Source: Rikenellaceae bacterium (GTDB lineage: Bacteria > Bacteroidota > Bacteroidia > Bacteroidales > Rikenellaceae). From it: a stretch of DNA of 64,000 bases. The notes under the pieces are model-generated. The model made no database searches, was not told the DNA's origin, and was given only the letters and a program-made list of their open reading frames with translations. Numbering within the stretch: position 1 is the first letter of the stretch; each line of letters opens with the position of its first letter. The translations under genes and the position numbers were made by a program. Shown one piece after another: positions 949-35,916 of this stretch. Where the stretch lies: positions 337 through 64,336 of the forward strand of contig JBCQUC010000004.1 of assembly GCA_047174275.1 (NCBI GenBank), written 5' to 3'.

Positions 949-3900
949 ATGAAGTCATACAACACGTCATTTAACAGATGGAATACCCTGCTTGGTTGGG
1001 TGGTATTTGCAATCGCTGCGGTGGTCTACCTCCTGACTATGGAGCCATCATCGAGTTTGTGGGATTGTGGTGAGTTTATCGCAACCTCTTATAAGTTGGA
1101 GGTTGGACACCCTCCAGGAGCACCGCTATTTATGATTTTGGCTCGTATCGCGACTATGTTTGCTCCGTCGACATACTATGTGCCTCATGCGGTGAATGCT
1201 ATGAACTGCTTTGCGAGTGCCTTTACTATTCTGTTTCTGTTCTGGACTATCACCCACCTCGCTCGAAAGATGTTTACACGCGGTGGAGAGGAGTTTACTG
1301 AAGCTAATGGCTGGGCAGCATTGTCGGCTGGTATTATTGGAGCTTTGAGCTACACATTTACCGATACATTCTGGTATTCGGCAGTTGAGGGTGAGGTATA
1401 CGCGCTCTCGTCGATGTTTACAGCTTTGGTTGTCTGGTTGATGCTCCGTTGGGAGGATGAGTCGGATGAACCTCACGCTTTGAGGTGGATTATACTGATC
1501 GCCTATTTGATGGGACTCTCGATTGGTGTGCATATTCTTAATCTGTTGACAATTCCAGCATTGGTGTTTATCTACTACTTCCGTAGATACTCAAAGGTTA
1601 CACTCAAAGGGATCATTGGGGCAACGCTTATATCGGGTGCAATACTCATATTTATCAACGCTTTTGTGTTGTCGCAATCTATCTATTTTGGAGCGATGGT
1701 TGACCTCTTCTTTGTCAATACATTAAATCTTCCAGTGAACTCTGGAATGGTTCTCTACTCGCTGTTGTTGATCGGTGCTTTGGGCTACGCTAGCTACTAT
1801 ACACATCGCCATAGAATGGTTCTCGCAAATGTTATTCTACTGTCGTTGACAATGCTATTTGTTGGATACTCTTCATATGCGTCGGTCACTATTCGAGCGA
1901 TAGCAAACCCTCCGATGAATAGTAATCAACCCGATAATCCACACGCTCTGTTGTCGCTGTTGGGGCGCGATCAGTATGGTTCGAAGCCTGTGATATATGG
2001 TGCGTCGTATGCTGCTCCCGTTGAGGATTATGAGAAACGTGCGGTCTACACTCTGGAGGAGGATGGCAAATATGTTAAAAACGAATTGCTGTCGGGTTAT
2101 GTATATCCAAGTGAGTTTATGAAGCTATTCCCTCGTATGTGGGACTCAAGACGAGGTGAAGCGGGTTATAAACCGTGGGCAGCCTATAGAACCAAGATGG
2201 GTGCAGTGCTCGATGGCGATGGCAATATGGTGCGCGATGCAAATGGTCAGGTTATGATGCAGGAGCAGATGGAGTATGGTAAGGTGGTAAATTATAGAGG
2301 TGAGCAGATCGTTGAGCCGACCTTTGGTGAGAACCTTAACTACTTCTTTAACTACCAGCTGAACTATATGTTCTGGCGATATTTCTTGTGGAATTTCGTC
2401 GGTCGTCAGAGTGATATCCAAGCATCCAAGGTGACAATCTCGGATGGAAATTGGTTGTCGGGAGTTAAATTTATAGATGAGGCTTATCTAGGGCCACAAA
2501 GCAATCTACCTCGCGAAGTTGCCGAGAATAGGGGGCGTAACACCTACTATTTCCTACCATTTTTGTTGGGATTGTTGGGGCTTTTATGGCAACTCAATAG
2601 CGATCAGAAGCGATTCTCGATTGTTATGTGGCTGTTTATTATGATGGGTGTTGCTCTTGTAGTCTACTTTAACACCTCACCTTCGGAGCCTCGCGAGCGC
2701 GATTATGTCTTTGCGGGAGCATTTTATGCCTATTCGATCTGGATTGGCTTTGGAGTGTTGGCTCTGCGAGAGTTGATTGAGGTTGCGACAGGCAAAGGGG
2801 GGCGTGTAGCAATTACGGCTGCAACGCTTGTGTCATTGAGTGTGCCGACGATCTTGGCGTGCGAGAACTGGGATGACCACGATCGTTCGGGGCGTACCAT
2901 CGCGCGAGATATCGGGTGGAACTACCTTCAGTCGACACTTCCAAACTCGATTATCTTGAACTACGGAGATAACGATACATTCCCTTTGTGGTTTAATCAG
3001 GAGGTTGATGGAGTTCGCACCGATGTTAGAATCATGAATACTAGCTATCTGGGTGGAGATTGGTATATCGACCAGATGAAGACTTGGGCAAATGATGCAG
3101 CTCCAGTCCCATTCTCACTGCCACGCAGCAAATACTCATATGTGAATGATCTGATCCCGATTGATGCAAGGGTCTCTCGATCTGTGCCGATCAAGGAGGT
3201 GATGGATTTCATCAAAAATGATGACAAGCGTACACAGATACAACTATCGGATGGTTCGTATACAGATTATGTACCTACAAATAGAATAGCTCTGCCAGTA
3301 AATAGACAAAATGTCCTCGATTCGGGTGTTGTTAAGTTGGAGGATGCCGATAAGATGGTCGATACAATCTACTTCTCGCTGCCTGGTAATACTATCGACA
3401 AGTCGGAGATGATGATCCTCGATATGTTGGCTAACTTCAATTGGGAGCGTCCGATCTACTTCACGCAGGTCTATATCTTGCAGAATTTGGGACTTCTTGA
3501 TTATCTTCAATTCGATGGTTACGCATACCGTTTTGTGCCGATCCCAACGCCATTCAAATCGGTATGGGATATCGGACGTGTCGATCCAGATTACGCTGGT
3601 CCACTCTTGATGGATACATTCAGATTTGGAAATATGAACGATCCGAAGGTCTATGCCGACTATACAGTGCAGTATAATATCGGAGCATCGAAGGCTCGCG
3701 AAGGGTTTGCAAGGGTTGCGATGGCATATATCCAGAGAGGCGACACAGAGAAGGCGATCGAACTTCTGGATAAAGCACTCTATGAGTTGCCAACATGGCA
3801 GTTGAGATTTACAGATGCAAACACAGTGCCTCTAATAGAGGCGTACTACGCAGCTGGAGCACTAGATAAAGGTGACGCACTGCTCACAGAGTATGTCAAC

Positions 3901-4137
3901 AATCTTGTGGAGTATATCGAGTATTACATCACATTTGAGGGTGTGCAGGCAGATATAACAACGCCACTGCTTGACCAGAAACTCGATGAGTTGGAGCAGG
4001 TGTACTATACGGCAGCCTATGCTAAACGCCCAGAGGTATTGAAGTGGTTCAATGATTATTATCGCTCGTTGGGGGCATCCGAAGAGGAGCTTTTGCCAAT
4101 TGGTACAGATACACAGAACTCAGATTTAGGAATTTAA
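949..4137 (+). CDS. DUF2723/TMEM260-like polytopic membrane glycosyltransferase
   Basis: 1062 aa with many TM helices; WDCGEF, VGHPPGAPLF, AVEGEVY, PRERDY and GDNDTFPLW motifs typical of Bacteroidota DUF2723 proteins. Confidence 0.8.
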   Translation: MKSYNTSFNRWNTLLGWVVFAIAAVVYLLTMEPSSSLWDCGEFIATSYKLEVGHPPGAPLFMILARIATMFAPSTYYVPHAVNAMNCFASAFTILFLFWTITHLARKMFTRGGEEFTEANGWAALSAGIIGALSYTFTDTFWYSAVEGEVYALSSMFTALVVWLMLRWEDESDEPHALRWIILIAYLMGLSIGVHILNLLTIPALVFIYYFRRYSKVTLKGIIGATLISGAILIFINAFVLSQSIYFGAMVDLFFVNTLNLPVNSGMVLYSLLLIGALGYASYYTHRHRMVLANVILLSLTMLFVGYSSYASVTIRAIANPPMNSNQPDNPHALLSLLGRDQYGSKPVIYGASYAAPVEDYEKRAVYTLEEDGKYVKNELLSGYVYPSEFMKLFPRMWDSRRGEAGYKPWAAYRTKMGAVLDGDGNMVRDANGQVMMQEQMEYGKVVNYRGEQIVEPTFGENLNYFFNYQLNYMFWRYFLWNFVGRQSDIQASKVTISDGNWLSGVKFIDEAYLGPQSNLPREVAENRGRNTYYFLPFLLGLLGLLWQLNSDQKRFSIVMWLFIMMGVALVVYFNTSPSEPRERDYVFAGAFYAYSIWIGFGVLALRELIEVATGKGGRVAITAATLVSLSVPTILACENWDDHDRSGRTIARDIGWNYLQSTLPNSIILNYGDNDTFPLWFNQEVDGVRTDVRIMNTSYLGGDWYIDQMKTWANDAAPVPFSLPRSKYSYVNDLIPIDARVSRSVPIKEVMDFIKNDDKRTQIQLSDGSYTDYVPTNRIALPVNRQNVLDSGVVKLEDADKMVDTIYFSLPGNTIDKSEMMILDMLANFNWERPIYFTQVYILQNLGLLDYLQFDGYAYRFVPIPTPFKSVWDIGRVDPDYAGPLLMDTFRFGNMNDPKVYADYTVQYNIGASKAREGFARVAMAYIQRGDTEKAIELLDKALYELPTWQLRFTDANTVPLIEAYYAAGALDKGDALLTEYVNNLVEYIEYYITFEGVQADITTPLLDQKLDELEQVYYTAAYAKRPEVLKWFNDYYRSLGASEEELLPIGTDTQNSDLGI

Positions 4138-4302
4138 GGAGACTTCTAATAATTCCCCAAAATACTTTTCCGCTACTATTCACCCCTTTTGCTTTTAGTC
4201 AAAATCGGTGGTAGGGGTCACTACAACCCACTTTGCCTAAAAACAAAATGGATAAATATTAACGAAAAATTATAATCGGGGAATTATTAGAAGTCCCCTT
4301 AA
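4134..4302. mobile_element. Family 3 MITE, copy 1
   Basis: 21-bp TIRs GG(A/G)GACTTCTAATAATTCCCC at 4138-4158 and 4278-4298, TTAA on both flanks; interior is the reverse complement homologue of 10069-10228. Confidence 0.8.
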
Positions 4303-6974: not shown

Positions 6975-6982
6975 TAACTTTG
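6975..6982 (+). promoter_or_regulatory. Bacteroidota housekeeping -7 promoter element for nifA
   Basis: TAACTTTG matches the TAnnTTTG consensus, about 95 bp upstream of nifA. Confidence 0.55.
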
Positions 6983-7074: not shown

Positions 7075-8640
7075 ATGATGGAGAGATTTTGTAGTAATGG
7101 AGAGGGAGGTTGTGTTAAAGTTCGAGAGTTGGATATACTCCTCGAAATAACCTCCATGTTGAGCAGCAAGGATATTGATCTAAATGCTGTGATTAATCTA
7201 TTAGCCGAACATTTGGACGTATATCGGCTTTTTCTAACTATCCTCAATCGAGAGAGTCAAAATATTCTAATTGAGGGTGCTTATGGACTATCCGATGCAG
7301 AGAAACGTGATGGAGTCTACCATATTGGGGAGGGTATCATCGGAAAGGTAATTGCAACTGGAGAGCCATATATGATCCCTAACGTTGCGGAGTCTGCGGA
7401 GTTTCTGAACCGCACGAAAGCACCTCTTAACAGTAAAGGTAATTACACCTCATTTATATGTATTCCCGTTAAATATAAGGGCGAAGTGGTTGGTACACTG
7501 AGCTTTCATAAATTGGTTGAGCAGACAAATGTCATGTTTGACGATGAGATGCGATTGCTGCATATTGTCGCAGGTATGGTTGGTCGAACAGTTCGTCGTC
7601 GACAGGAGTACTTCGAGGAGATGGAGAAGCTCAAACGAGAGAATAGTCGTCTACGTAACAATATAATCAGTTATACAACTCAACCAGACAACATTAAAGG
7701 AAAGTCAGGCAAGATGAGTGAGGTCTTCTCGCTTATTGAGAGTGTTGCGGCGACCGATGCAACGGTGATTATTCGCGGTGAGAGTGGTGTGGGAAAGGAG
7801 TTGGTTGCGGATGCAATCCATAGCGGTAGTGTGCGTCGAGACAAACCGTTTATTAAGGTCAATTGTGCGGCACTTCCCGATAGCCTCATTGAGAGTGAGA
7901 TCTTTGGACACGAGAAGGGTGCATTTACAGGTGCTACTCAGCGACATATTGGTCGTTTTGAGGCGGCAAATGGTGGTACAATATTTCTCGATGAGTTGGG
8001 CGATGTTCCAGCATCGACTCAGATCAAACTTCTTCGAGTGCTTCAAGAGCGTGAAATTCAGAGGTTGGGAAGCTCAGAGACTATAAAGGTCGATGTTCGA
8101 GTGATCTGCGCAACCAATAGAAATCTGGAGAAGATGATCGCCGATGGTGAGTTTCGAGAGGATCTATACTATCGACTCAATGTGTTTCCTATCTATATTC
8201 CACCCCTTCGAGAGAGAATCAACGATATCCCTGTTCTTGTTGACCACTTTATCGAGAAGTTCAACAATAGATACAATCGAAAAGTTAAGCGCATAACATC
8301 AATGGCGATTGATACCTTGATTATGTATAATTGGCCTGGAAATATCCGAGAGTTGGAGAACTGTATGGAGCGAGCCTATATTCTTAGTCAAGAGGGTGTT
8401 ATCAGAGTCCACAATCTTCCGCCAACACTTCAAACGGCAGCTTCGTCTCAGACCGCAGCAAAGGGTAGCCTAGGTATAATAATGGGTAATCTGGAGAAGC
8501 AGGTGATCGTCGATGCCCTTATATCGACCAAAGGAAATATCGCAAAGGCGGCAGAGTCGCTATCTATAACAGAGAGAATTATGGGTCTTAGGATCTCGAA
8601 ATATGAGATCGATCCGAAACGCTATAAACCACAAAAATAG
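7075..8640 (+). CDS. nifA: NifA-type sigma54 enhancer-binding protein (GAF-AAA+-HTH)
   Basis: N-terminal [11 protein letters not shown] Walker A, GAFTGA loop, [21 protein letters not shown]-terminal HTH; nif context. The start may be 7078. Confidence 0.9.
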
Positions 8641-8645
8641 AGATA

Positions 8646-9116
8646 ATGGAACTTACATTTGAGATATGTGACTACTCAAATCCAGCACATTTGACCGCTG
8701 TAGCGGATCTTTTGCAGGGATATATGGCCGACCCGATGGGGGAGCATCGACCACACAATAAATTGGAGCAACTTCGGTTGGTTGATGGTTTGGCTAACCA
8801 TCCAGCTTCATTCGTACTTCTTGCTTGTGTCGAGGATCAAGCTATAGGATTTGCAACCTGTTTCGAACTATTCTCGACATTTGAGATTAAGCCATTCATA
8901 AATATCCACGATTTTTTCGTCTTGCCTTCCTATAGGGGGCATGGTATCGGACGTGCAATGTTGGAACATATCTCGGAGATTGCAGTCGAGAAAAAGTGTT
9001 GCAAGGTCTCTTTGGAGGTGCGTACAGACAATGCGGTGGCGCAGGGACTATACCGAAGTGTAGGGTTTGGCGAGGCAAATCCCGATATGTTGTTTTGGGT
9101 GAAAACCTTTTATTAG
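8646..9116 (+). CDS. GNAT-family N-acetyltransferase
   Basis: Acetyl-CoA motif A (V-LPSYRGHGIGRAML) and NAVAQGLYRSVGF; 5 bp after the nifA stop. Confidence 0.88.
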   Translation: MELTFEICDYSNPAHLTAVADLLQGYMADPMGEHRPHNKLEQLRLVDGLANHPASFVLLACVEDQAIGFATCFELFSTFEIKPFINIHDFFVLPSYRGHGIGRAMLEHISEIAVEKKCCKVSLEVRTDNAVAQGLYRSVGFGEANPDMLFWVKTFY

Positions 9117-9413
9117 TGTTCGATAAAAATCCAACAAACCTTTGTAATGCACTGTAATATAACAGATTGTATGCGTTTGTAAAATCAGGGACTTGCTTTT
9201 GCGAATAGTCCCATTTGAGATACGAAATTGAAAATTTCGTCATCCTGAACTTGTTTCAGGATCTCAGCAAATGACAATGTAGTCACAGTAGTGTGTTAAT
9301 AAACAATAGTTTAGTAAATGGTGTAGGGATCCTGAAACAAGTTCAGGATGACGAAATTTTCAATTTCGTATCTCACGTATGACTTGCTAGAAACGTTTTA
9401 TCAGACACTAATA
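9111..9413. mobile_element. Family 1 nested REP-doublet element, copy A
   Basis: Outer TIR TTAGTGT(C/T)(C/T)GATAAAA with TA flanks; inverted REPs GTCATCCTGAACTTGTTTCAGGATC(T/C)C around a 60-nt spacer (9266-9325). Confidence 0.85.
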
Positions 9414-9430
9414 AAAAAACTTTAGAGGAT

Positions 9431-9670
9431 ATGAGTATTCAGAATGCAATAAATTTCTTGGCACGAGTTCAATCAGATGATGATTATAGACAATCGTGCT
9501 ACAAATTTCGAACGAAACAAGACCTCATGGAATATATACAGCAGGAGGGCTATAGCTTTTCGGATGGGGAGTTTGAAAATGCTATAAACCATCTCCTGCT
9601 GCGATGCTCAGATGCGTCACAGGGGTACGAAGTGCACCACCTGCAAAGCTGGTTTAGTCTGTTTCAGTAG
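9431..9670 (+). CDS. Nif11-like small protein
   Basis: MSIQNAINFLARVQSDDDYRQ...QEGYSFS-E resembles the Nif11 pattern (MS...FL..V..D..LR...GY.FT.EE); AGAGGA ribosome-binding site. Confidence 0.7.
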   Translation: MSIQNAINFLARVQSDDDYRQSCYKFRTKQDLMEYIQQEGYSFSDGEFENAINHLLLRCSDASQGYEVHHLQSWFSLFQ

Positions 9671-10061
9671 CCGATTTTAGTCGTTCGGTTACCAAATCTT
9701 TTAGTTCATTTAGACCCTCGATCATCCTATCAATTTGTGGATTGTCGGGGGTTCTGTATCCAAAGTCATCAATCGAGCAGATACCTTCGAACGAGCCTAC
9801 CAAGACAGCTGTCTTTCTAAGGCTGAGGCTCAAATCTGGCTCGAAATCGTTCACTTCGCGATAGAGCATAAGCGGAAGATGACTCGTTGCAATTGAGTCG
9901 TGGTGCGCCAACCATGCTATCATAAACTTCTCGAAACATATTGCTATCATATTGTATAGCAGATCGTTGTCGAATTTGCGATTCGGATTGCTAAATGATG
10001 ATGTTATTGTGTTGAGGTAACTATTAGCAAAGTCATAGTTATCTTTGGCTAACTCTTTCAT
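9654..10061 (-). CDS. Hypothetical protein with possible HEPN-like fold
   Basis: 135 aa, helical; ICFEKFMIAWL and TSHLPLML resemble the HEPN 'EK.LKA.L' and 'THDL..L' motifs. Confidence 0.6.
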   Translation of the reverse strand: MKELAKDNYDFANSYLNTITSSFSNPNRKFDNDLLYNMIAICFEKFMIAWLAHHDSIATSHLPLMLYREVNDFEPDLSLSLRKTAVLVGSFEGICSIDDFGYRTPDNPQIDRMIEGLNELKDLVTERLKSATETD

Positions 10062-10064
10062 AGT

Positions 10065-10232
10065 TATAGGGGAGTTCTAATAATTCCCTAATTTTAATTT
10101 TTAGTTAATAATTGCCCATTTTTGATTTTGCAAAAGTGGGTTGTAGTGGCTCTACCACCGATTTTTGAAAAATCGAAAAGGGGTGGTTAGTAACTGAAGG
10201 GTATTTTAGGGAATTATTAGAACTCCCCTATA
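10065..10232. mobile_element. Family 3 MITE, copy 2
   Basis: TIRs GGGGAGTTCTAATAATTCCC at both ends (element 10069-10228), TATA on both flanks. Confidence 0.8.
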
Positions 10233-11349
10233 TTGTTTTGTATATTGACAATAGTTCCGTAGGCTCTAAATCTCGTTTGTTGAGTGTGCACCAACGGCGT
10301 ACCTCCTCCAGAAGTCGAGGCAGGATCTCATCTCGGCAGACAACTCCCAACTCCTCTAGTGCAGATTTGAGGGTCGCCATACACGTATGTTTTCCTATCT
10401 TAAATCGACGCTCTGTGAGCCCAATCTCTTCGGCTTTGATAAGTTGATATGTTGATCGATCGCGTTTTAGATACTTCGTGTGGATCCCACTCTCGTGTGT
10501 TAAAACGAGCTCTCCGACAATAGGCTTCGATACGCTGTTTTTGCGTCCCGATATTCTCTCAACATAGCTGCAAATCGAAGGGAATAGAGTCTTGTTGAGC
10601 CCAGTTGTGATACCTGTACTCTTCTCTATAGCCATCACAACCTCCTCCATCGCTGCGTTTCCAGCCCTCTCGCCCAATCCATTAACTGTTGTGCTGAGAG
10701 CATCTGCCCCTGCCATCCATGCCGCTATCGTATTCGCACACGCCATTCCCAAGTCGTTGTGGGCGTGAAACTCAATCGAAATATCAGGGCTGAGATCCCT
10801 TATCGGGCGAATTAGATCTTGTGTCGAGAATGGGTTGAGCAGACCAACTGTATCTGCTAGGCGTATCCTCTTAGCTCCACTCTTAATTGTCTCAAATGCA
10901 AACTCCTCAAGGAAATGGCTGTTAGCACGAGAGGCATCTTGAGCCCCGACACTTACATAATCGAATGTCTCGTAACTCCTCGTAACAATCTCTTGAATCT
11001 CCTTGAGCACCCATTTACGACTCTTACCCATCACTCCAAGCAGTTTGTCTGAGACAGGGAACGATAGATGTATTCCATCCACGCCACTCTTACGTGCAAG
11101 TTCGATCTCCGAAGGCATAGCTCTGCACCATGCCAACATCCTAGCATCGAAATTTGCATCGGTTATCGCCTTGATCTCTTCGATCGCAGCACACCCCATT
11201 GCTGGGGTTCCAACCTCAAACTCACTGACTCCCGCTTCACACAACATCGAGACTAGAGCGAACTTTTCATCGAGGGTAAATGCTACCCCCGACGCTTGTT
11301 CACCGTCACGAAGTGTAGTGTCTACAAATATAGGGTGCTTATAACTCAT
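10228..11349 (-). CDS. nifV: Homocitrate synthase
   Basis: DTTLRDGEQ, LADTVG, HAHNDLGMA, NGLGERAGNA, HESGIH; nif context. Confidence 0.92.
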   Translation of the reverse strand: MSYKHPIFVDTTLRDGEQASGVAFTLDEKFALVSMLCEAGVSEFEVGTPAMGCAAIEEIKAITDANFDARMLAWCRAMPSEIELARKSGVDGIHLSFPVSDKLLGVMGKSRKWVLKEIQEIVTRSYETFDYVSVGAQDASRANSHFLEEFAFETIKSGAKRIRLADTVGLLNPFSTQDLIRPIRDLSPDISIEFHAHNDLGMACANTIAAWMAGADALSTTVNGLGERAGNAAMEEVVMAIEKSTGITTGLNKTLFPSICSYVERISGRKNSVSKPIVGELVLTHESGIHTKYLKRDRSTYQLIKAEEIGLTERRFKIGKHTCMATLKSALEELGVVCRDEILPRLLEEVRRWCTLNKRDLEPTELLSIYKTI

Positions 11350-11358
11350 ATATGCTCT

Positions 11359-11667
11359 TTAGTCACTAATCAAATACTTCTCGCATGCCTCTCCATCTTC
11401 GAGCGCATCAAGGATCTCGTCGATCGCATCCTCGCTATCCACGCCGCCATACCAGAAATTTAGAGGTTGGATAACCATTGCTGGTCCTTGTGAACATACA
11501 TTTAGACAGGCTGTAGTGCTTACCACGACATCTAGTCCGCGGTCGCTTGTCTCCTCGACAATATATTGTAAAAGTTGTGGTGCTCCCTTTTTGTTGCAAA
11601 CACCCAATGCCTCGCCGCTAACTCTGTACGAGTTGCATAGCAGAATGTGATACTGTGGCTTTTTCAT
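11359..11667 (-). CDS. Thioredoxin-like [2Fe-2S] ferredoxin
   Basis: LLCNSYR..C..KG and TACLNVCSQGP..WYG pattern. Confidence 0.88.
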   Translation of the reverse strand: MKKPQYHILLCNSYRVSGEALGVCNKKGAPQLLQYIVEETSDRGLDVVVSTTACLNVCSQGPAMVIQPLNFWYGGVDSEDAIDEILDALEDGEACEKYLISD

Positions 11668-11752
11668 ACCCTGATAATTTTAATGTTAGTTGGTTATTCT
11701 GTTTTGTATTTACTACTTGTTGAAATATAAGTTTTGCTCCGCATTGGAGATT

Positions 11753-11867
11753 GTTGATAGGTGGATGAAATTTTGAAGATGGCGTAGAGGGCTCTGGAAG
11801 GAGCATACTTTAAGTATGTGACTGAAGAGAACTCTATGGTATCTTTAAAATTTCGCCGCCTTGCAAC
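11753..11867 (-). repeat. Family 2 stem-loop/REP element, copy a (after nifB)
   Basis: Imperfect terminal IRs GTTGATAGGTGG...CCGCCTTGCAAC around a central palindrome GCATACTT-T-AAGTATG-TGAC; the shared flank extends to about 11730. Confidence 0.8.
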
Positions 11868-11887
11868 AATCTCTGTTGTGAAGTGGA

Positions 11888-13141
11888 TCAACCGCATCCC
11901 ATTGCGTTCCCCTTGCAGTTTGATCCGCACTTGAAAGCGTCGCGTTTGGCTATAGACTTAATTACGCGGTTGCTATAGATTCCATCCAATCCCTCATCTA
12001 TAAGTCCTGTCATCTCAACAACATTGAGCCCAGAGCTCTTTAGAACCTTAAGTGGTTTGTCACCTACGCCACTTACAAGTAGTGCGCGACAATCTGAAAG
12101 CATCTTTGAGAGCATCTCCCAGCGGATATCACCCAATCCACGATCTGGAGTTTTGCGACTCTCGACCCACTTAAATCCATTTGGCGTTTGGCGATAAATA
12201 TTGAGTGAAGCAGCCTCTCCAAGATGCATATTTACAAGCATACCCTCATTTGTAGCTACGGCAACATATGGACGACTATCTGTGTCAACATCCGAACGCT
12301 GAGCATACTCGCTCATCAGAGCATGCGCTTCGCTCATATCCTGTCCCAAAAGACCAGCGGCATCCGCACGACACCTTGCGCAGTGGCTCATAAGTTTAAG
12401 GTGGTCTGACGCTAATGTGCGAACACGGAAGACCATCTTTGGATCAGGTTGCTCTAGATTCTCGAAAGCGGTGTCGGCAACAGGGATAAGCGGAATGCAG
12501 TTTATAACATCAGCACCCAATTCAGAGCATACTCTAGCAACCTCCTTGATCCCATCCTCGTTGATCGTTGGGATTATAATACTGTTGATCTTTACAGTTA
12601 TACCCTTCGCCTTTAGCTTTGGGATACATGCTAACTGCTTGTCGAGGAGTCTCTTTGCTCCATCTTCGCCTCGATAGATATGCTTTCCATCGCGAACCCA
12701 TTTGTAGATCTTCGCAAGAACCTTTGTGTCGATACTATTTATTGTGATGGTTACGTGGCTAACATTTAGCTCAGCAATCTCATCAATATATGGCTCTAGA
12801 CCAAGTCCATTTGTTGATAGGCAGAAGATCTTATCAGGGAATCTCTCGTGTGCAAGACGCATAGTCTCAAGAGTCTCCTCAGGGTTTGCAAATGGGTCTC
12901 CAGGGCCTGCAATACCAATTACCGACAGGTTTGGCATACGCTTATCGAGCTCCTCAAGATAACCTACAGATTGTTTTGGTGTGAGAATTGTCGATGTCAC
13001 TCCTGGGCGACTCTCGCTTACGCAATCATATTTGCGATTGCAATAGTTGCACTGAATATTGCACTTTGGCGCAACGGGTAGGTGTACTCGTGCGTGGGTA
13101 TGTTTTGCTTCAGCGTCGAAGCATGGGTGCTTGTGTTCCAT
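11888..13141 (-). CDS. nifB: FeMo-cofactor radical SAM protein NifB with C-terminal NifX-like domain
   Basis: HPCF, PKCNIQCNYC (CxxxCxxC), ESRPGV, IAGPGDP, HCARCRADA. Confidence 0.97.
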   Translation of the reverse strand: MEHKHPCFDAEAKHTHARVHLPVAPKCNIQCNYCNRKYDCVSESRPGVTSTILTPKQSVGYLEELDKRMPNLSVIGIAGPGDPFANPEETLETMRLAHERFPDKIFCLSTNGLGLEPYIDEIAELNVSHVTITINSIDTKVLAKIYKWVRDGKHIYRGEDGAKRLLDKQLACIPKLKAKGITVKINSIIIPTINEDGIKEVARVCSELGADVINCIPLIPVADTAFENLEQPDPKMVFRVRTLASDHLKLMSHCARCRADAAGLLGQDMSEAHALMSEYAQRSDVDTDSRPYVAVATNEGMLVNMHLGEAASLNIYRQTPNGFKWVESRKTPDRGLGDIRWEMLSKMLSDCRALLVSGVGDKPLKVLKSSGLNVVEMTGLIDEGLDGIYSNRVIKSIAKRDAFKCGSNCKGNAMGCG

Positions 13142-13145
13142 GATC

Positions 13146-14450
13146 TTAAATGTATTTATACCCTACGGGTGAGTTCTCTTGTTTATACTCTATTAATGCG
13201 TTTACAACTCTATCAAATAGCTCTTGTGTGCCTCGATATCCGATCTTTAACTGACGAGCAGCTCCAAAACGGTCGTGGATCGGGAATCCAACACGTATGA
13301 TTGGGATCTTTAGTTCGCGAGCTATATAGTAACCTTTGCTGCTTCCCATCATAATGTCGGGTTTGATCTGGTTGAGTTTGGCGTGTATCGACTCAAAATC
13401 TGTATCGGTGAACGAATAGACCTCAAGTCCAATCTCCTTGCACCATGCTGATAGTGCCGAGACCAAATCTGCCTCTCCGTAGATTGCGATCTTTTTGCCG
13501 AATAGATATTTGTGAGCATCTACATACGCATCTATCAATCGTCCACGCTCCATCTGATACTTCTTTGGGATCTCAACTCCATACTCAGCACTGAGACACT
13601 CCATAAATCTATCCGAAGCCTCTATGCCAATTGGAATCGGCATCTGGGTGTTTTTTACTCCGCAATCACTCTCCAGCCACTCTCCACCTGTTGGGATACG
13701 CCCGCTCTCGGATGTACGTTTGTAGAACTGGTTGAATCTCTCTCCAAACTCAATGACAGCCTTTGCATCTCCACACTCCTCAATCTCTTTGAGTGGTGTT
13801 CCTCCACTTGGAATAAGTTGATACTCCGCTGTATATACATTGTCGAGTGACTCGCTGTAGTCGGGAAATACCGTCCCCGTAACACCAAAGTCAGCGATGA
13901 TCTCCTTGATATATCTGATATCGGCAGGTGTCACCATTCCTGGTAGAACAACTAGCTTCTCGGTTCGCTTAGTTGACTTTGCGAGTGTCTTTAATGCTGA
14001 GAGAACCGTATTGTGAAACCCTTCGGCATGCGATCCACAGTAGCTAGGTGTCGAACTATGGATAAATGCTGGAAGATTATCCGACATCTTTGCATCGCGG
14101 TAGTTTCTGATGTGACCTGGGATATCCTCACCAATTGTCTCCGAGAGACATGTAGAGGCGATTCCGATCACCTTTGGGTGGTACTGTTTTATTATATTGT
14201 CTATTCCTGTTATGAAGTTTTTACTTCCTCCATATACCGTCGACTCCTCCGAAAAGTTGCTCGATGCAATATCTACGGGCTCTTTGTAGTGGCTAATCAT
14301 ATATCGGCGGATATATGTTGCACACCCTTGTGATCCGTGAATAAGCGGAACACAACCCTCAATCCCCTTGAATACCAACGATGCTCCAAGTGGGGCGCAA
14401 AGTTTGCAAGCGTTGCGCGACGATACGTATGTTTTATCCTCTGTTTTCAT
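13146..14450 (-). CDS. nifN: Nitrogenase cofactor scaffold NifN
   Basis: CAPLGA, HGSQGCATY, TCLSETIGED, GFPIHDR. Confidence 0.92.
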   Translation of the reverse strand: MKTEDKTYVSSRNACKLCAPLGASLVFKGIEGCVPLIHGSQGCATYIRRYMISHYKEPVDIASSNFSEESTVYGGSKNFITGIDNIIKQYHPKVIGIASTCLSETIGEDIPGHIRNYRDAKMSDNLPAFIHSSTPSYCGSHAEGFHNTVLSALKTLAKSTKRTEKLVVLPGMVTPADIRYIKEIIADFGVTGTVFPDYSESLDNVYTAEYQLIPSGGTPLKEIEECGDAKAVIEFGERFNQFYKRTSESGRIPTGGEWLESDCGVKNTQMPIPIGIEASDRFMECLSAEYGVEIPKKYQMERGRLIDAYVDAHKYLFGKKIAIYGEADLVSALSAWCKEIGLEVYSFTDTDFESIHAKLNQIKPDIMMGSSKGYYIARELKIPIIRVGFPIHDRFGAARQLKIGYRGTQELFDRVVNALIEYKQENSPVGYKYI

Positions 14451-15792
14451 CGCTCTCCCTCCTATTTGTTTTTGTAAATTTCCATACTGGAGTCATCGCT
14501 GTGGCGTAGATCTCCTTTGCAAAGTTCAACATCCCCTCGTATCCTGCAAGAGCCTCTTTGCGTTCGTGGTTGTGGTCACAAAAACCGAGTCCAATCTTGT
14601 AGGCTATCGGGCGTTCCTTCACACCTCCGATGAATATATCAGCCTCTTTCTCCTTTACGAAGTGGGAGAGCTCAATAGGGTTCGAGTCATCGACGATCAC
14701 AGTCCCCTCGTCACAAAGATTCTTTATGAGCTCATAATCTTCGGTAGAGCCAGTTTGAGATCCGATGATAACAGTCTTTACTCCGATGAGTCGAAGAGCC
14801 TTCACCAAAGAGATCGCTTTGAATGCTCCGCCGACATATATCGCAGCTCGCTTACCCTCCAAAGCCTCTTTGTATGGTTTTAGTGCAGGGAGCAGTCGAG
14901 TCATCTCGTCGCGGACAATTTCGCGAGCCCTCTCCATCATCTCGTCATCTTTGAAGAATCGAGCAACTTCGTATAGCGCATCGCTCATATCCTCAATTCC
15001 GAAGTATGATACATGCATAAATGGTGTGCCATACTCCTCTTTCATCATCTTGGCAAGGTGGATCATCGAGCCAGAACACTGCACAACATTGAGCCCCGCT
15101 TTGTGGGCGTTGCGAATATCATCGACACGTCCATCGCCAGTGATTGTTGCATTTACGTGGACTCCCATTCGCTTGTAGTATTCGAGCAGAATCCAGAGTT
15201 CACCCGCAAGGTTGAAATCTCCCAAAATATTTATACTCTTCTTGGGAATGTCGCCATCTCCTGTGCCGACCAACTTAAAGAGTGATTCACAAGCTACTTT
15301 GTAGCCATCTTTTTTCGAGCCCTGAAAACCTGGAGCTTGAACAGGTATTGTTGTGACACCAGTCTCCTCGGTCACCTGTTTACAGATCTGCTCAACATCA
15401 TCGCCAATCACACCTACGATACATGTCGTATAGACAAATGCCGCCTTTGGCTGGTGTGCTGCGATAAGCTCTATGAGCGAAGCGTATAACTTCTTTTCGC
15501 CGCCGAAGATTACATCTTTCTCTTGAAGGTCGGTCGAAAAACTTGTTCTGTGAAGTTCGGGCCCCGATGAAAGTGACCCTCGAATGTCCCAAGTGTATGC
15601 AGCGCAACCTATTGGGCCATGAATTATGTGTAAAGCATCCGCAATGGGGTATAGCACAACTCGTGATCCGCAAAAGACACACGCTCGTTGACTCATACTT
15701 CCTGCAAGACTCACTTTGCCAGCCTGAACAGTTGGTGCATCTGCGCCACTTGTCGAGACTTGCCTCTCCCTCTCCTTTAAAATGTGAGCCAT
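14434..15792 (-). CDS. nifE: Nitrogenase cofactor scaffold NifE
   Basis: RACVFCGSR, HGPIGCAAY, TCIVGVIGDD, VQCSGS. Confidence 0.93.
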   Translation of the reverse strand: MAHILKERERQVSTSGADAPTVQAGKVSLAGSMSQRACVFCGSRVVLYPIADALHIIHGPIGCAAYTWDIRGSLSSGPELHRTSFSTDLQEKDVIFGGEKKLYASLIELIAAHQPKAAFVYTTCIVGVIGDDVEQICKQVTEETGVTTIPVQAPGFQGSKKDGYKVACESLFKLVGTGDGDIPKKSINILGDFNLAGELWILLEYYKRMGVHVNATITGDGRVDDIRNAHKAGLNVVQCSGSMIHLAKMMKEEYGTPFMHVSYFGIEDMSDALYEVARFFKDDEMMERAREIVRDEMTRLLPALKPYKEALEGKRAAIYVGGAFKAISLVKALRLIGVKTVIIGSQTGSTEDYELIKNLCDEGTVIVDDSNPIELSHFVKEKEADIFIGGVKERPIAYKIGLGFCDHNHERKEALAGYEGMLNFAKEIYATAMTPVWKFTKTNRRESDENRG

Positions 15793-15808
15793 AACATTGA
15801 TTTTTTTG

Positions 15809-16086
15809 TATTAGTGTCCGATAAAACTTTCCTAGCAGTCCCATGTGAGATACGAAATTGAAAATTTCGTCATCCTGAACTTGTTTCAGGATCCCTGCAT
15901 TATTGATTAAGTTGTTGTGTGCTAATGTATTACAGGGGTTGTGTTGTCGTTTGCTGAGATCCTGAAACAAGTTCAGGATGACGAAATTTTCAATTTCGTA
16001 TCTCAAGTGAGACTATTAAGCCCCTAATTCCACAAACATATACAATCTGTTACAAAGGTTTGTCGGGTTTTTGTCGGACAGTAATA
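15809..16086. mobile_element. Family 1 nested REP-doublet element, copy B (nifK-nifE gap)
   Basis: Same layered IRs as copy A in the opposite orientation; 60-nt spacer; TA flanks. Confidence 0.85.
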
Positions 16087-16105
16087 ATTTTTTTTGTTTT
16101 GTTAA

Positions 16106-16148
16106 TTCGAAGATCTCAACCCTCTAATTTGAGGTTGAAATCTTCGAA
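16106..16148 (-). promoter_or_regulatory. Stem-loop immediately 3' of nifK
   Basis: TTCGAAGATCTCAACCCTC-TAATTT-GAGGTTGAAATCTTCGAA, 9 bp after the nifK stop; no U-tract on the minus strand. Confidence 0.6.
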
Positions 16149-16157
16149 AATATTGTA

Positions 16158-17537
16158 TTACATTTGGAACTCAATAGTCTCCTCTGTGCACTCTCTATCA
16201 CGGTGAGATAGAAGCTCATGGATGATTGAAGTTACCATGTTCGCAGCTCCCTTATAACCAGTCTTAGCGAAGTAGTTGTGACCAGCACGATCGGCGATTG
16301 GGAATCCCATACGATAGAATGGTGTGTTCTCGTCGCGAGCGATATACTTACCATAAGTATTTCCGATCAACAAATCAACACCCTCTTGTTTGATCCACTG
16401 GTGAAGTTGGAACATATCGGCATTTGCACCGCTCTTCCACTTAGCCTCTGGGATATCCTTTAGTAGCTCAGCCATACGCTCCTCGAACTCCTTACCTGGA
16501 GTACCCGTTACGATGTATACTGGACGCATATCCATAGATACAAGGAACTCAACCATTGGGATAAGTGTGTCTGGATCGCCCCACAATGCTACACGCTTGC
16601 CATACAAGTGAACCGAAGCATCTGAGATCAAATCGAGCAACTGACCGCGCTCGTAAGTCAACTCATCCGATACTGGAACGTTTGCGTGGCGGCTGATAGA
16701 TGTCAAGAAACGATCTGTAGCCAAGAATCCGATTGGAATATCAAGAACCTCGAATGGAACTTTACACTGATTCTCCATCTTGATACAAGCGTCGGTTGTA
16801 GTGTATGAACCCAAACCTACAGATACCTTGCTGTCACCGCTTAGGCGGATATCTGCAATTTTAGCACCTCCATCTGGGTACATCTTGTATGTTCCAGTCA
16901 TTGGCCCATCCAATACTCCTGTCATATCTGGGAACATGAATGTGCGACTCTCCATAACCTTGCAAAGTCTCTTGATCTCAGCTTGATCCGATGGCTCCAT
17001 CCAACCCGAAATAAGGTTGATTACGTTGCGTCTCTTGCCTGTTTTTGTGGCAAACGACTTCACCATCGAAGTTACCTGATTTGCATATCCAGTGACGTGT
17101 GTTCCAACATAACTTGGTGTGTTACAGTAGATAACCTCCTTGCCAGCTGGGATAAATCCATCTTCTGCAGCCTTCGATACAATCTGAGTCATATCATCAC
17201 CAATTGTCTCCGAAAGACAAGTTGTGTGAACTGCGATAACCTCTGGGTCGTAAGTTGTGAAGATCGTATTGATCGCCTGAACCAAGTTGGCAGAACCTCC
17301 AAATACTGAAGAACCCTCAGAGAATGAACTTGTAGCTGCCATGATTGGCTCTTTGAAGTGACGTGTAAGTGCACTTCGGTGGTATGAGCAACATCCTTGT
17401 GAACCGTGGCTATGTGGCAAACACCCGTGGATACCGAGTGCCGCGTACATTGCACCAACTGGTTGACAAGTCTTTGCTGGGTTGACCGTCAGAGCTTTTC
17501 TTTCGATCTCCTTATCTGTTGTGTGTCTTAATAACAT
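16158..17537 (-). CDS. nifK: Nitrogenase MoFe protein beta chain
   Basis: NPAKTCQPVGA, HGSQGCCSY, TTCLSETIGDD P-cluster ligands. Confidence 0.97.
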   Translation of the reverse strand: MLLRHTTDKEIERKALTVNPAKTCQPVGAMYAALGIHGCLPHSHGSQGCCSYHRSALTRHFKEPIMAATSSFSEGSSVFGGSANLVQAINTIFTTYDPEVIAVHTTCLSETIGDDMTQIVSKAAEDGFIPAGKEVIYCNTPSYVGTHVTGYANQVTSMVKSFATKTGKRRNVINLISGWMEPSDQAEIKRLCKVMESRTFMFPDMTGVLDGPMTGTYKMYPDGGAKIADIRLSGDSKVSVGLGSYTTTDACIKMENQCKVPFEVLDIPIGFLATDRFLTSISRHANVPVSDELTYERGQLLDLISDASVHLYGKRVALWGDPDTLIPMVEFLVSMDMRPVYIVTGTPGKEFEERMAELLKDIPEAKWKSGANADMFQLHQWIKQEGVDLLIGNTYGKYIARDENTPFYRMGFPIADRAGHNYFAKTGYKGAANMVTSIIHELLSHRDRECTEETIEFQM

Positions 17538-17550
17538 AATCTTTCCCTCT

Positions 17551-19179
17551 TTAATTTAGTACATAGCTTGCCTCAACATATGCCTCACGCTCCCATGGTG
17601 CCTTCAAATATTTGTGAAGTGTAGCGCATGAGATCATCTCGATATCTTTGTAGAAGTTGATAGCACCTGCAAATCCTGCATATGGGCCACCAGAATCGTA
17701 GTTGTGAAGCATCTTCAATGGAATACCCATCTTCTGAGCAACATACTTCTCCTTGATACCTGCACAGAATACATCTGGGTGGTATAGCTCGATCAACTTC
17801 TCCATCTCGTAGTGGCTCAAATCGTCGATAACGAGTGTGCCCTTCTGCATATCTGCCATAAGTCCCTCGTAGTCGTTGAACTCGCCGCCATTCGAGATCT
17901 TTGTCAAGTGCTCATCTGGTTTACGCTTGTTGTAACGCTCCTCATCTTTGTAGACTGTGATCTCCTCGATGTTACGGCTATCGGCATCAACTTGGATTGT
18001 TGGAATCACGCGGCGACCCTCGTAGTCATCACGGTGACCGAACTCATATCCAGCTGCAAGAGTTGTCATACCCAACTCGTTGAATAGCTCTTGGTAGTGG
18101 TGAGCGCGAGATCCACCGACAAACAACATCGCTGTCTTGCCAACTGTCTTTTTGCGAGCCTGCTCAGCTGCAGCCTCAACACGTACCATCTCCTCAGCGA
18201 TAACCTTCTCGATCTGGTCGATAAGCTCCTGATCCTCGAAGTACTCTCCGATTTTGCGAAGTGATTTAGCTGTTGCCTCAGCACCGATGAAGTTACACTT
18301 AGTCCAAGGAATACCGAACGATGTATTCAACATCTCAGCTACGTAGTTGATTGAACGGTGACACATAACAAGACTCAAATCTGCTGTGTGAGCACGCTCA
18401 AACTTAGTCATTGTAGCATTTCCCGACATTGTAGCGATTAGCTCAATTCCGCAACGATCCATCAAATCCTCAATTACGAAAGCGTCACCTCCGATGTTGT
18501 ACTCTCCAAGCAGATTGACACGATACTTGTGCTTGCCCTCGATTGTGTCATCCTTACCGATACAGTTCTTGTAGAGCTGATTGTTCGCGATGTGGTGACC
18601 AGCCGACTGAGATACTCCACGATATCCCTCGCAAGAGAAACCGATGATGTTAACCCCAGGGAACTCCTCCTCCATCTGGCGAGCTACACGGTGAACATCA
18701 TCACCGATAAGACCTACAGGACAAGTTGAGAATACTCCGATCGCCTTTGGGTGGAATAGCTCCATCGCCTCGCGGATCGCCTGCTTTAGCTTCTCCTCAC
18801 CACCGAATACGATGTTTGAGTCCTGCATATCAGTTGAGAAACAGTATGGGATGTAGTTCTCATCCATGTCAGACTCTGGGCGAGTCTGGTTACGACGTGT
18901 AAGCCATGAGTAGAATCCGCAACCGATCGGGCCGTGTGTGATATTTACGATATCACGAGTTGGTCCCATGATTACTCCCTTACAACCTGCGTAAGTACAA
19001 CCACGCTGTGTGATGATACCTGGCACTGTACGTACATTGGCTTGGATCTTTGGGATCAGATCTGGGTCGTTTACGGCAACCGCCTTAGAACGTTTTTTTG
19101 CTACCTTCTTCGGGTACTTCTCAGCTACCGCCTCGACGAACTCCGAAAAATCTGGTAATTTCTTTATATCTTCTTTCAT
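17551..19179 (-). CDS. nifD: Nitrogenase MoFe protein alpha chain (long, group II type)
   Basis: RGCTYAGC, HGPIGCG, TCPVGLIGDD, SAGHHIAN, MCHRSINY, GGSRAHHY, LHNYDSGGPY; about 50-aa insertion (RVIPTIQVDADSRNIEE...). Confidence 0.97.
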   Translation of the reverse strand: MKEDIKKLPDFSEFVEAVAEKYPKKVAKKRSKAVAVNDPDLIPKIQANVRTVPGIITQRGCTYAGCKGVIMGPTRDIVNITHGPIGCGFYSWLTRRNQTRPESDMDENYIPYCFSTDMQDSNIVFGGEEKLKQAIREAMELFHPKAIGVFSTCPVGLIGDDVHRVARQMEEEFPGVNIIGFSCEGYRGVSQSAGHHIANNQLYKNCIGKDDTIEGKHKYRVNLLGEYNIGGDAFVIEDLMDRCGIELIATMSGNATMTKFERAHTADLSLVMCHRSINYVAEMLNTSFGIPWTKCNFIGAEATAKSLRKIGEYFEDQELIDQIEKVIAEEMVRVEAAAEQARKKTVGKTAMLFVGGSRAHHYQELFNELGMTTLAAGYEFGHRDDYEGRRVIPTIQVDADSRNIEEITVYKDEERYNKRKPDEHLTKISNGGEFNDYEGLMADMQKGTLVIDDLSHYEMEKLIELYHPDVFCAGIKEKYVAQKMGIPLKMLHNYDSGGPYAGFAGAINFYKDIEMISCATLHKYLKAPWEREAYVEASYVLN

Positions 19180-19190
19180 AGGAATCTTAT

Positions 19191-19556
19191 TTAATCGAGT
19201 GTGATATCTCCAGTCTCACCTGTGCGGACACGAACTGATTCGAATGTGTTGACCACGAAGATCTTACCATCTCCACTCTTGCCCGTTTGGTTAACCTTAA
19301 TAATTGTCTCTACAGCCAAATCCTTCTTGTCGTCAGTTACAACAAGCGTAATCATACGCTTAGATTTTAGACGTGGATTCTGCTGAATATGCTCGTGGTG
19401 CTCAGGGTCGATACCCTCAGCCTTCTCCAAATCGCCGTGACCCTTACCACGTCCCACAACTGGAAGAGCTGTGAACGATGGTAGATCGACTGCAGAGAGA
19501 GCCTCCTTAGTCTCGGTCATCTTCGCGATACGGATGATTGCCATTATTAACTTCAT
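19191..19556 (-). CDS. nifI2: NifI2, PII-like nitrogenase switch-off protein
   Basis: GRGKG, PKR-like SKRMI, TGKSGDGKIFV, RVRTGE; located between nifH and nifD. Confidence 0.88.
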   Translation of the reverse strand: MKLIMAIIRIAKMTETKEALSAVDLPSFTALPVVGRGKGHGDLEKAEGIDPEHHEHIQQNPRLKSKRMITLVVTDDKKDLAVETIIKVNQTGKSGDGKIFVVNTFESVRVRTGETGDITLD

Positions 19557-19588
19557 AGTAATCTAATTTATTAGTCGTTTTTTGTAAA

Positions 19589-19630
19589 GTTGATAGGTGG
19601 ATGAAATTTGAAATTTCGTCGCATTGCAAC
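19589..19630 (-). repeat. Family 2 element, internally deleted copy b (after nifI1)
   Basis: GTTGATAGGTGGATGAAATTT-GAAATTTCGTCGCATTGCAAC: only the terminal arms remain. Confidence 0.7.
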
Positions 19631-19631
19631 T

Positions 19632-19958
19632 TTACACCTCCATGAATCCTGAAGAGATAGTATAGCACTCCTCAACTGGTGTAACGAAGATCTTACCATC
19701 TCCGAACTGTCCTGTTGCGCTAGAGCGAGCTGAGTTTATGATTGTCTCAATCACAAAATCTTTGTCCTTCTTTTTGATAGTAATCATCAACATCTCCTTT
19801 GGAAGCTCATCATACGTTACGTTTCCAGCCTTGATACCACGCTGCTTACCACGTCCATATACTGCGATCTTTGTAACGGCTGGGAATCCAGCGTCCATCA
19901 ACGACTTCATTACTACTGCCGATTTTTCTGGTCTTACGATTGCTCTAATTAAATACAT
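19632..19958 (-). CDS. nifI1: NifI1, PII-like nitrogenase switch-off protein
   Basis: AIVRPEK, GRGKQRG, YDELPKEML, GQFGDGKIFV. Confidence 0.88.
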   Translation of the reverse strand: MYLIRAIVRPEKSAVVMKSLMDAGFPAVTKIAVYGRGKQRGIKAGNVTYDELPKEMLMITIKKKDKDFVIETIINSARSSATGQFGDGKIFVTPVEECYTISSGFMEV

Positions 19959-19996
19959 TGTCTTGATTTTTTATTTGGTTTGTGTTTTGCTCAAAA

Positions 19997-20111
19997 GTTG
20001 ATAAGTGGATGAGATCTTGTGCATCGTAAGCTGGCGGAGGAGGGAGCATACTTTGGGTATGTGACCGATTGCCGACAGCTTGGGATGTGCAAGATCTCAC
20101 CACCTTGCAAC
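19997..20111 (-). repeat. Family 2 element, copy c (after nifH)
   Basis: GTTGATAAGTGG...GAGCATACTTTGGGTATGTGAC...CCACCTTGCAAC with divergent inner arms. Confidence 0.75.
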
Positions 20112-20117
20112 TTTTGT

Positions 20118-20975
<858 letters not shown>

Positions 20976-21008: not shown

Positions 21009-21024
21009 TGCATTAAGTGTGCCA
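21009..21024 (-). promoter_or_regulatory. Sigma54 (-24/-12) promoter of nifH
   Basis: Minus strand TGGCAC-ACTTA-ATGCA with correct GG-N10-GC spacing, about 65 bp upstream of the ATG. Confidence 0.85.
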
Positions 21025-21197: not shown

Positions 21198-21298
21198 GGA
21201 AATTGGTTTTGAATGTTATTTTTGTCTGCTAATTTTTATTTAGCACTTTCGTTGCATCACGTTTAGACTCTGAGAGGGTCGCTATTTTGAATCACCTT

Positions 21299-28490: not shown

Positions 28491-28505
28491 ATGCAATATA
28501 TTGAT

Positions 28506-35666: not shown

Positions 35667-35685
35667 AATTTTCTCTATGTTTTAT

Positions 35686-35895: not shown

Positions 35896-35916
35896 AAAAC
35901 ATTCACTACTCTTTGA

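Follow-up and report, generated by a model that had tools for sequence, protein, structure and literature searches.

Three candidate accessory genes at a convergent junction of the Bacteroidales nif cluster

Introduction

Nitrogen fixation by Bacteroidales, whether by termite, cockroach and other gut symbionts or by sediment anaerobes, has previously been described down to nifHDKENB, two PII genes, a ferredoxin gene and sometimes nifA (PMC4356463). In the clusters compiled by Inoue et al. (2015, PMC4356463), the Bacteroidetes genes follow the order nifH-glnB-glnB-nifDKENB-ferredoxin, with nifA and modABC sometimes nearby. Here we analyse the nif locus in a stretch of 64,000 nucleotides from a gut-type bacterium of the Rikenellaceae (assembly GCA_047174275.1, contig JBCQUC010000004.1, positions 337 to 64,336 of the forward strand), hereafter called the window and numbered from its first letter. 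This locus shares with the described clusters the core gene order, the two PII genes and the ferredoxin gene after nifB. It also holds three small genes, encoding a GNAT acetyltransferase, a stand-alone Nif11-domain protein and a protein that we call ORF135, which lie where two nif units meet head-on.

The published description (PMC4356463) mentions neither a nifV-ORF135 pair nor a GNAT or Nif11, and is extended here by the convergent nifA-GNAT-(nifX-like)-nif11 unit and by the HEPN-fold gene. In the library that we searched, we found no paper tying an HEPN protein, a GNAT or the gene trio to Bacteroidales nif clusters. Nif11 (PF07862) itself has stood as an uncharacterised nif-cluster protein, named from Azotobacter and cyanobacterial nif regions. 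A first reading of the window from its letters alone (the sequence-only reading) had taken the three genes for genuine nif accessory genes that may form an undescribed module. We consider it highly probable that the junction of the two convergent units is conserved across Bacteroidales, and that the genes at its ends are lineage-specific accessory genes rather than passengers. That the three are genuine, hitherto undescribed nif-associated genes appears well supported by genome comparison, and a comparison of their distributions argues against an obligate trio.

Results

The open reading frame (ORF) map and domain searches resolve positions 7075-11349 of the window into nifA-GNAT-nif11 on the plus strand, converging on nifV-ORF135 on the minus strand. 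The gene for a NifA-like sigma-54 activator, with GAF, AAA+ and HTH_8 domains in Pfam (7075-8640), is followed by that of the 156-aa GNAT (8646-9116, Pfam PF00583), which begins 5 nt past the nifA stop, and by that of the 79-aa Nif11 protein (9431-9670, Pfam PF07862). On the opposite strand, the homocitrate synthase gene nifV (10228-11349, identified by domain search) precedes ORF135 (9654-10061), the last gene of the nifH...nifV unit, whose product has a predicted HEPN fold. The nif11 and ORF135 frames share 17 bp at 9654-9670, both stop codons included, and the two facing units with their 3′ overlap, as the sequence-only reading had described them, are thus borne out by the ORF map.

The distribution of the three genes follows that of nitrogenase. 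We examined 100 genomes of the same genus (101 with the present one), scoring the GNAT as present at E ≤ 1e-10. Four of the 100 carry nifB; ORF135, Nif11 and the GNAT are confined to exactly these four, so that, counting the present genome, nifB and all three genes are found in five of 101 and absent from 96. These four congeners have an identical order, nifH-I1-I2-D-K-E-N-B-fdx-V-ORF135 facing nif11-GNAT-nifA, free of repeats; their genes are separated by −1 to 45 nt, and the convergent ends overlap by 4-35 bp. Over the whole order, an even set of 400 genomes plus this one (401) contains 37 with nifB, one of these being a weak, interrupted match. The ORF135 profile matches 23 genomes, namely 22 of the 37 with nifB and 1 of the 364 without it, the exception being a 72%-complete genome. 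Nif11 matches 18 genomes (17 with nifB, one without). As the genomes of this sample are not independent, we give no P value.

When all species representatives of GTDB were scanned with a pattern, ORF135 relatives came to light in 73 species. The carriers include Rikenellaceae metagenome-assembled genomes (MAGs), Paludibacter, Bacteroides luti, Dysgonomonas, Alkaliflexus, Geofilum and Natronoflexus, as well as Alkalitalea, Breznakibacter, Microbacter and Tannerella. In 63 of the 73 species, nif genes lie within 10 kb of ORF135, which takes at least four kinds of placement: after nifV (50 loci), divergent from nifH, between nifE and nifN, or after nifA-GNAT. Synteny is kept across many Bacteroidales families, with rearrangements, and the GNAT gene starts −14 to +57 nt from the nifA stop in most lineages. 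Beyond Rikenellaceae, a gene of 138-147 aa with a weak NifX/NafY-type domain, of the kind that binds the iron-molybdenum cofactor (FeMo-co), stands between the GNAT gene and nif11 (for instance L019:11966-12409 and L020:12183-12599), and further small genes come after; the NifX-like gene would appear to have been lost in Rikenellaceae.

Co-occurrence and conserved synteny with nitrogenase genes, which we use as the operational definition of a nif accessory gene, were both found. Furthermore, among the congeners the proportion of non-synonymous differences (pN, 0.13-0.32) stays well under the saturated proportion of synonymous ones (pS, 0.64-0.97) for all three genes, as it does for nifA and nifV. 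The assignment of the GNAT, Nif11 and the HEPN-like protein to nif is therefore upheld by co-occurrence, synteny and constraint: scored through nifB, the three genes fall in the same genomes of the genus sample, they do adjoin nif in other nif-bearing Bacteroidales, and their order is the same in four congeners out of four.

The meeting point of the two units is itself a conserved feature. A consensus scan found no terminator-like site between the convergent nif11 and ORF135, and the region of the overlap has no stronger predicted folding than shuffled sequence (z = 0.09 and −1.6), in agreement with the absence of a terminator that had been noted from the letters. The closest relative that we found, L098, whose ORF135 is 79% identical and whose locus is free of repeats, has an identical 17-bp convergent overlap. 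Overlaps of 4-35 bp are present in most Rikenellaceae and Bacteroidaceae loci (−17 in B. luti). The conservation of a convergent overlap lacking a terminator makes mutual read-through between the facing operons plausible, from which the sequence-only reading had expected antisense RNA. Another contig (L097, GCA_047174515.1, JBCQTZ010000003.1) is 99.97% identical to the window; its public gene calls list the GNAT and ORF135 and omit nif11, which is called in L098.

In the window, two of the junctions are interrupted by inserts. The first, between the GNAT gene and nif11, is a 303-bp non-autonomous repeat (TATTAGTG...CACTAATA, 9111-9413) with 57-nt internal inverted arms and 21-nt terminal arms, which as mRNA is predicted to fold into a hairpin of −132 kcal/mol (z = −13). 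Copies of at least 250 bp number 48 genome-wide, and the hairpin core is found at about 350 loci in 2.2 Mb. With inverted ends, a target-site duplication (TSD), dispersed copies and no ORF, it belongs with the miniature inverted-repeat transposable elements (MITEs) and other non-autonomous elements. When the copies are aligned, most show clear 9-bp TSDs, and the duplications are perfect in most of the other copies, unlike at the nif locus, where the left copy (AAAACCTTT, 9102-9110) and the right copy (AAAAAACTT, 9414-9422) agree at six of nine positions, the three mismatches being adjacent.

Excision of 9111-9413 together with one TSD gives ...TTT TGG GTG AAA AAA CTT TAG AGGAT ATG, that is, a GNAT of 155 aa ending in FWVKKL*, a 5-nt spacer (AGGAT) and the nif11 ATG. 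At the same junction L098 reads PDMLFWVKKL* TAA GAT ATG, and the GNATs of two congeners, G057 and G063, terminate in KKL*. Given these ends and the reconstruction, the ancestral K-K-L codons and stop of the GNAT gene are preserved to the right of the insert, at 9414-9425 on the plus strand (the right TSD copy followed by TAG). The present C-terminus, KTFY*, runs from the diverged left duplicate into the element, which supplies the last codon and the stop (TAT TAG, 9111-9116). At this point the sequence-only reading needs correction: it had excision yield a GNAT stop TAA and a 16-nt gap, whereas the TAA at 9412-9414 belongs to the end of the element and the ancestral arrangement was TAG plus 5 nt, with which the C-termini of the relatives agree. 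A TSD shifted by 1 nt, which would match at eight of nine positions and leave the GNAT gene without a stop, was rejected because the relatives end in KKL*. The AGAGGA ahead of nif11 is doubtful as a Shine-Dalgarno site, since Bacteroidota make little use of such sequences.

The 303-bp repeat is not enriched at the nif locus; three copies in 14.5 kb correspond to chance at about 350 loci per 2.2 Mb. Its core recurs about once per 6 kb, and the genome is unusually repeat-rich. Further core copies in the window lie at 15806-16080, between nifE and nifK, and at 21297-21475, 28505-28662 and 35685-35901; one of them, a partial copy, is upstream of the nifH promoter.

The second insert, between nifV and ORF135, is a MITE of 160 bp (GGGGAG...CTCCCC, 10069-10228), whose terminal inverted repeats, TSDs included, are perfect over 27 bp. 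Its 4-bp TSDs (TATA) occupy 10065-10068 and 10229-10232, the right one holding part of the ancestral nifV TAA stop, and the TAG with which nifV now ends takes its G from the last base of the MITE. As mRNA it is predicted to form a hairpin of −67 kcal/mol (z = −11). The 2.2-Mb genome has eight copies, the nearest 98% identical, with conserved termini GGGGA...TCCCC and, in seven of the eight, a perfect 4-bp AT-rich TSD. Inverted ends, TSD, multiple dispersed copies and lack of coding capacity are all those of a MITE. When the MITE is excised with one TATA, the junction reads ...AAA ACA ATA TAA CT ATG, which reproduces the nifV-TAA-CT-ATG predicted beforehand, and the empty site of L098 (...ATT TAA AT ATG) is likewise tight. 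The genome-wide copies further confirm that both inserts are genuine dispersed repeats. Another copy of the MITE, 81% identical, lies at 4137-4299 between a 1062-aa ORF (949-4137) and cysS. An Rfam scan of 8500-11500 returned just sub-threshold matches of both inserts to plant microRNA precursors, which we set aside as generic to long hairpins.

What do the inserts do to the genes behind them? A pattern search for promoters brought by the repeats found neither a sense-strand sigma-54 site nor a TAnnTTTG −7 box in either insert. Structured inserts have thus taken the place of near-zero spacers and supply no recognisable promoter, so that translational coupling would be lost, and the expression of nif11 and ORF135 may be lowered in this genome. 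One could go further and suppose that the insertions have uncoupled and effectively silenced both genes here, with decay under way while the families remain functional elsewhere. Indeed, the hairpins of −132 and −67 kcal/mol separate nif11 and ORF135 from their upstream partners, no sense-strand promoter is recognisable in either repeat, and termination-reinitiation coupling would be lost at both junctions (2 nt at nifV-ORF135, 5 nt at GNAT-nif11). However, neither ORF is disrupted, no invariant residue of either family has been lost, and we regard outright silencing as rather unlikely. Since the MITE is 98% identical to another copy, the insertion may be so young that decay would not yet be visible, and the intactness of the ORFs is a weak test in both directions.

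The hypothesis that the three genes are passengers on a horizontally transferred nif island, kept by linkage and without a role in nitrogen fixation, takes its arguments from elsewhere. The nif genes are patchy in the genus (4 of 100 genomes), and a reduced nifB-bearing genome of the same order, G343, is devoid of all three. Moreover, compared with congener G057, NifH, NifD, NifK, NifI1 and NifI2 are 96-100% identical and the proteins from NifE to NifA 64-89%, a mosaic that points to the nifH-K block alone having recently been transferred or recombined. But mere linkage accounts poorly for genes that are kept across many families despite rearrangement, under a non-synonymous constraint equal to that on nifA and nifV, and, in most lineages, with tight or translationally coupled junctions to nifA and nifV. 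Furthermore, in the remaining 10 of the 73 species ORF135 sits amid housekeeping genes (guaA, a DEAD-box helicase gene, pfkB, mnmE), and nifB is present elsewhere in all 10 genomes. We accordingly give the passenger hypothesis little credence.

Several observations nevertheless weigh against the reading that we prefer, namely a conserved junction bordered by accessory genes. No ORF135 homologue was detected in 14-15 of the 37 nifB-bearing genomes of the order sample. In G343 (1.2 Mb, 99% complete, with nifB), which is probably an endosymbiont that has kept a minimal set of nif genes, no GNAT, Nif11 or ORF135 was detected, so that none of the three can be a universal requirement. Moreover, genomes that are related do not count as independent samples, and nif probably travels as an island, an effect that inflates co-occurrence. 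The operon boundaries and promoters are putative assignments, made from spacing and motifs; it may be that nif11 and ORF135 have already been silenced by the hairpins in the present genome; and the biochemical role of each of the three proteins is a matter of conjecture.

The same data speak to the idea of a module. Of the genomes sampled across the order, 13 carry ORF135 together with Nif11, 9-10 carry ORF135 only and 4-5 carry Nif11 only. Among five nifB-bearing genomes lacking an ORF135 match, four have a GNAT orthologue; one of these four gains an ORF135 match with a broader profile and three stay negative. The module that the first reading had allowed for is thus not borne out as an obligate trio, as the genes occur separately and G343 is without all three. 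On the evidence of gene content, they are individually nif-associated, separable, and apparently dispensable in at least one lineage.

The GNAT is a clear member of its superfamily (PF00583, 73.3 bits against a gathering score of 20.7) and falls below the RimI equivalog model TIGR01575 (59.9 bits against a cut-off of 86.4). Among solved structures, the closest to it are diamine and thialysine acetyltransferases (E about 1e-9). The Nif11 protein matches PF07862 over residues 1-48 (37.5 bits against a gathering score of 23.8) and stays just under TIGR03798 (31.2 bits, cut-off 32.3), the model for precursors of ribosomally synthesised and post-translationally modified peptides (RiPPs). There is no Gly-Gly site in its sequence and no maturase at the locus. 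Cys23 and Cys59 are conserved in the alignment, and AlphaFold2 (AF2) predicts the whole chain to be one compact five-helix domain (mean predicted local distance difference test, pLDDT, 90.8). A PDB sequence search gave nothing significant for it, nor did a search of PDB folds (best E 2.8). PADLOC had no match for any of the three proteins.

ORF135 has no sequence match in Pfam, NCBIfam, PADLOC or the PDB, and it belongs to a small family, of which 131 representatives were found at E ≤ 1e-3 out of 1.84 billion. Its AF2 model is confident (pLDDT 89.5, predicted template-modelling score 0.85), and the best five PDB matches found by Foldseek are all HEPN structures (1wol, 1ufb, 1o3u, 2hsb and 3o10), with template-modelling (TM) scores of 0.55-0.71 and E values of 7e-3 to 0.16. 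The HEPN-like character that had been read from the letters is thus supported at the level of the predicted fold. In searches with the Pfam HEPN model PF05168, the window protein itself gives no match, two close members of the family match at E about 1e-3, and a divergent relative, P0091, reaches 22.0 bits, equal to the gathering score, with others at 17.7-19.8 bits. One divergent relative with such a HEPN score also sits after nifV.

The Rx4-6H motif of HEPN RNases is absent from the alignments of 27 close and 20 extended members of the ORF135 family. Where it would be expected, ahead of the last helix, the family has a FEGICS-x3-FGYxTP loop. Tyr15, Phe30, Glu44 and Cys95 are invariant, and Tyr36, His61, Ile94 and Pro105 nearly so. 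No nucleotidyltransferase (MNT) gene adjoins ORF135 in any locus inspected, its neighbours being nifV, nifH, nifE, nif11 or housekeeping genes. That ORF135 should be an HEPN toxin or defence gene, the remnant of an HEPN-MNT pair lying by chance at the end of a nif cluster, is hardly credible: although its fold matches include the MNT-HEPN toxins 7ae6, 6m6u and 8xdj (TM 0.5-0.6), the RNase motif is missing throughout the family, no nucleotidyltransferase accompanies it in the loci inspected, PADLOC does not recognise it, and its distribution is tied to nifB.

Regarding the rest of the locus, the structural unit continues upstream of nifV on the minus strand with the genes for a 2Fe-2S ferredoxin, nifB, nifN, nifE, nifK, nifD, nifI2, nifI1 and nifH (11359-20942). 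A candidate sigma-54 −24/−12 promoter (TGGCACACTTAATGCA, 21009-21024, minus strand) lies about 65 nt upstream of nifH. On the plus strand, a pattern search gave a candidate Bacteroidetes-type −7 box (TAACTTTG, 6975-6982) about 93 nt upstream of the nifA ATG; the TAnnTTTG motif has 67 matches in the window, against 38 expected from shuffles. Two neighbourhoods in other lineages are worth recording. In one, the ORF135 homologue is followed in the nifV operon by a gene for a nucleoside-diphosphate kinase and by an ORF of 109 aa (L020:10432-10893). In the other, on a Joint Genome Institute metagenome contig, a gene for a Gp49 (HigB-like) toxin and one for its 99-aa partner are inserted between nifE and nifK (L019:3634-4273).

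Discussion

Our preferred explanation, a conserved convergent junction whose end genes serve nitrogenase, can be put as a sequence of steps. The regulatory unit nifA-GNAT-nif11 would probably be transcribed from a housekeeping-type promoter upstream of nifA, and the structural unit nifH-I1-I2-D-K-E-N-B-fdx-V-ORF135 would be driven by the sigma-54 promoter upstream of nifH. Ancestrally, all junctions would have been tight (5 nt at nifA/GNAT, 5 nt at GNAT/nif11, 2 nt at nifV/ORF135 and the 17-bp 3′ overlap). Two non-autonomous elements would then have inserted exactly at two of these junctions, leaving both proteins essentially intact and placing nif11 and ORF135 each behind a long mRNA hairpin. 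The GNAT would be an acetyltransferase of the small-molecule-amine type, translationally coupled to NifA; Nif11 would be compact, with five helices and a pair of conserved cysteines; and ORF135 would have kept the HEPN fold, with its Glu/His/Cys set and FEGICS-x3-FGYxTP loop, while losing the RNase motif. The three genes would aid nitrogenase without being indispensable to it.

The ORF135 family is the most interesting element of this locus, the remainder being ordinary operon architecture disturbed by ordinary MITE-like repeats. Because ORF135 usually follows nifV, we place it, as a conjecture, at the homocitrate/FeMo-co stage, as a non-catalytic binder of a ligand or metal. A bolder proposal, which we advance tentatively and which may well prove wrong, is that the family is an unrecognised, Bacteroidales-specific nitrogenase accessory factor, in which the HEPN fold would have been turned from an RNase either into a Glu/His/Cys binder of a ligand or metal, working with NifV, NifEN or NifB on homocitrate or FeMo-co, or into a nucleotide sensor that tunes nitrogenase. 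With the NifA-coupled GNAT and the two-cysteine Nif11 it would form a lineage-specific layer of nif maturation or regulation, to which the conserved overlap without a terminator would contribute antisense control of the regulator and structural operons over each other.

For nitrogen fixation in Bacteroidales, these results put forward three candidates for accessory genes, backed by a strong comparative signal, one of them belonging to an HEPN-fold family that has no database model and is essentially restricted to nif-bearing genomes. Nitrogenase biochemists gain three small targets in cultivable species, and annotators a marker set for Bacteroidales diazotrophs. Moreover, MITE-like repeats can disrupt translational coupling in nif operons, which bears on whether the nif clusters of MAGs fully work. 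The view of nitrogenase itself is unchanged unless a phenotype turns up.

Compared with known systems, the two inserts are in no way unusual. Like other MITEs and non-autonomous derivatives of insertion sequences, they lack an ORF, occur in many copies and bear terminal inverted repeats and TSDs (4 and 9 bp). Among the known small nif accessory proteins, NifP is not a GNAT but a serine acetyltransferase of the hexapeptide-repeat type. More generally, NifW, NifZ, NifX/NafY, NifQ and NifP/CysE are likewise small, nif-linked and often non-essential, and help in cofactor assembly or stability; the GNAT, Nif11 and ORF135 match none of these families, and resemble them in size, linkage and dispensability.

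With the Nif11 family, the window protein shares the N-terminal 48-residue domain and the linkage to nif. Nif11-type leader peptides of RiPPs are represented by TIGR03798 (Haft et al. 2010, as summarised in bioRxiv 10.64898/2026.08.28.747955). The window protein differs from such leaders in its score below the cut-off, in lacking both a Gly-Gly site and a maturase, and in forming one compact domain with two conserved cysteines.

Finally, ORF135 shares with the HEPN domain proteins (PF05168) a helical up-down bundle of about 130 aa, recognised by Foldseek with a probability of 1.0 at TM scores of 0.65-0.71, and its solved counterparts are ST0689 (1wol), TT1696 (1ufb), TM0613 (1o3u), AF0298 (2hsb) and the HEPN domain of sacsin (3o10). 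It departs from them in having no Pfam match, no Rx4-6H motif and no MNT partner, in possessing its own set of residues (Glu44, His61 and Cys95) along with the loop ahead of the last helix, and in belonging to a family that is, among the genomes searched, almost confined to nif-bearing Bacteroidales.

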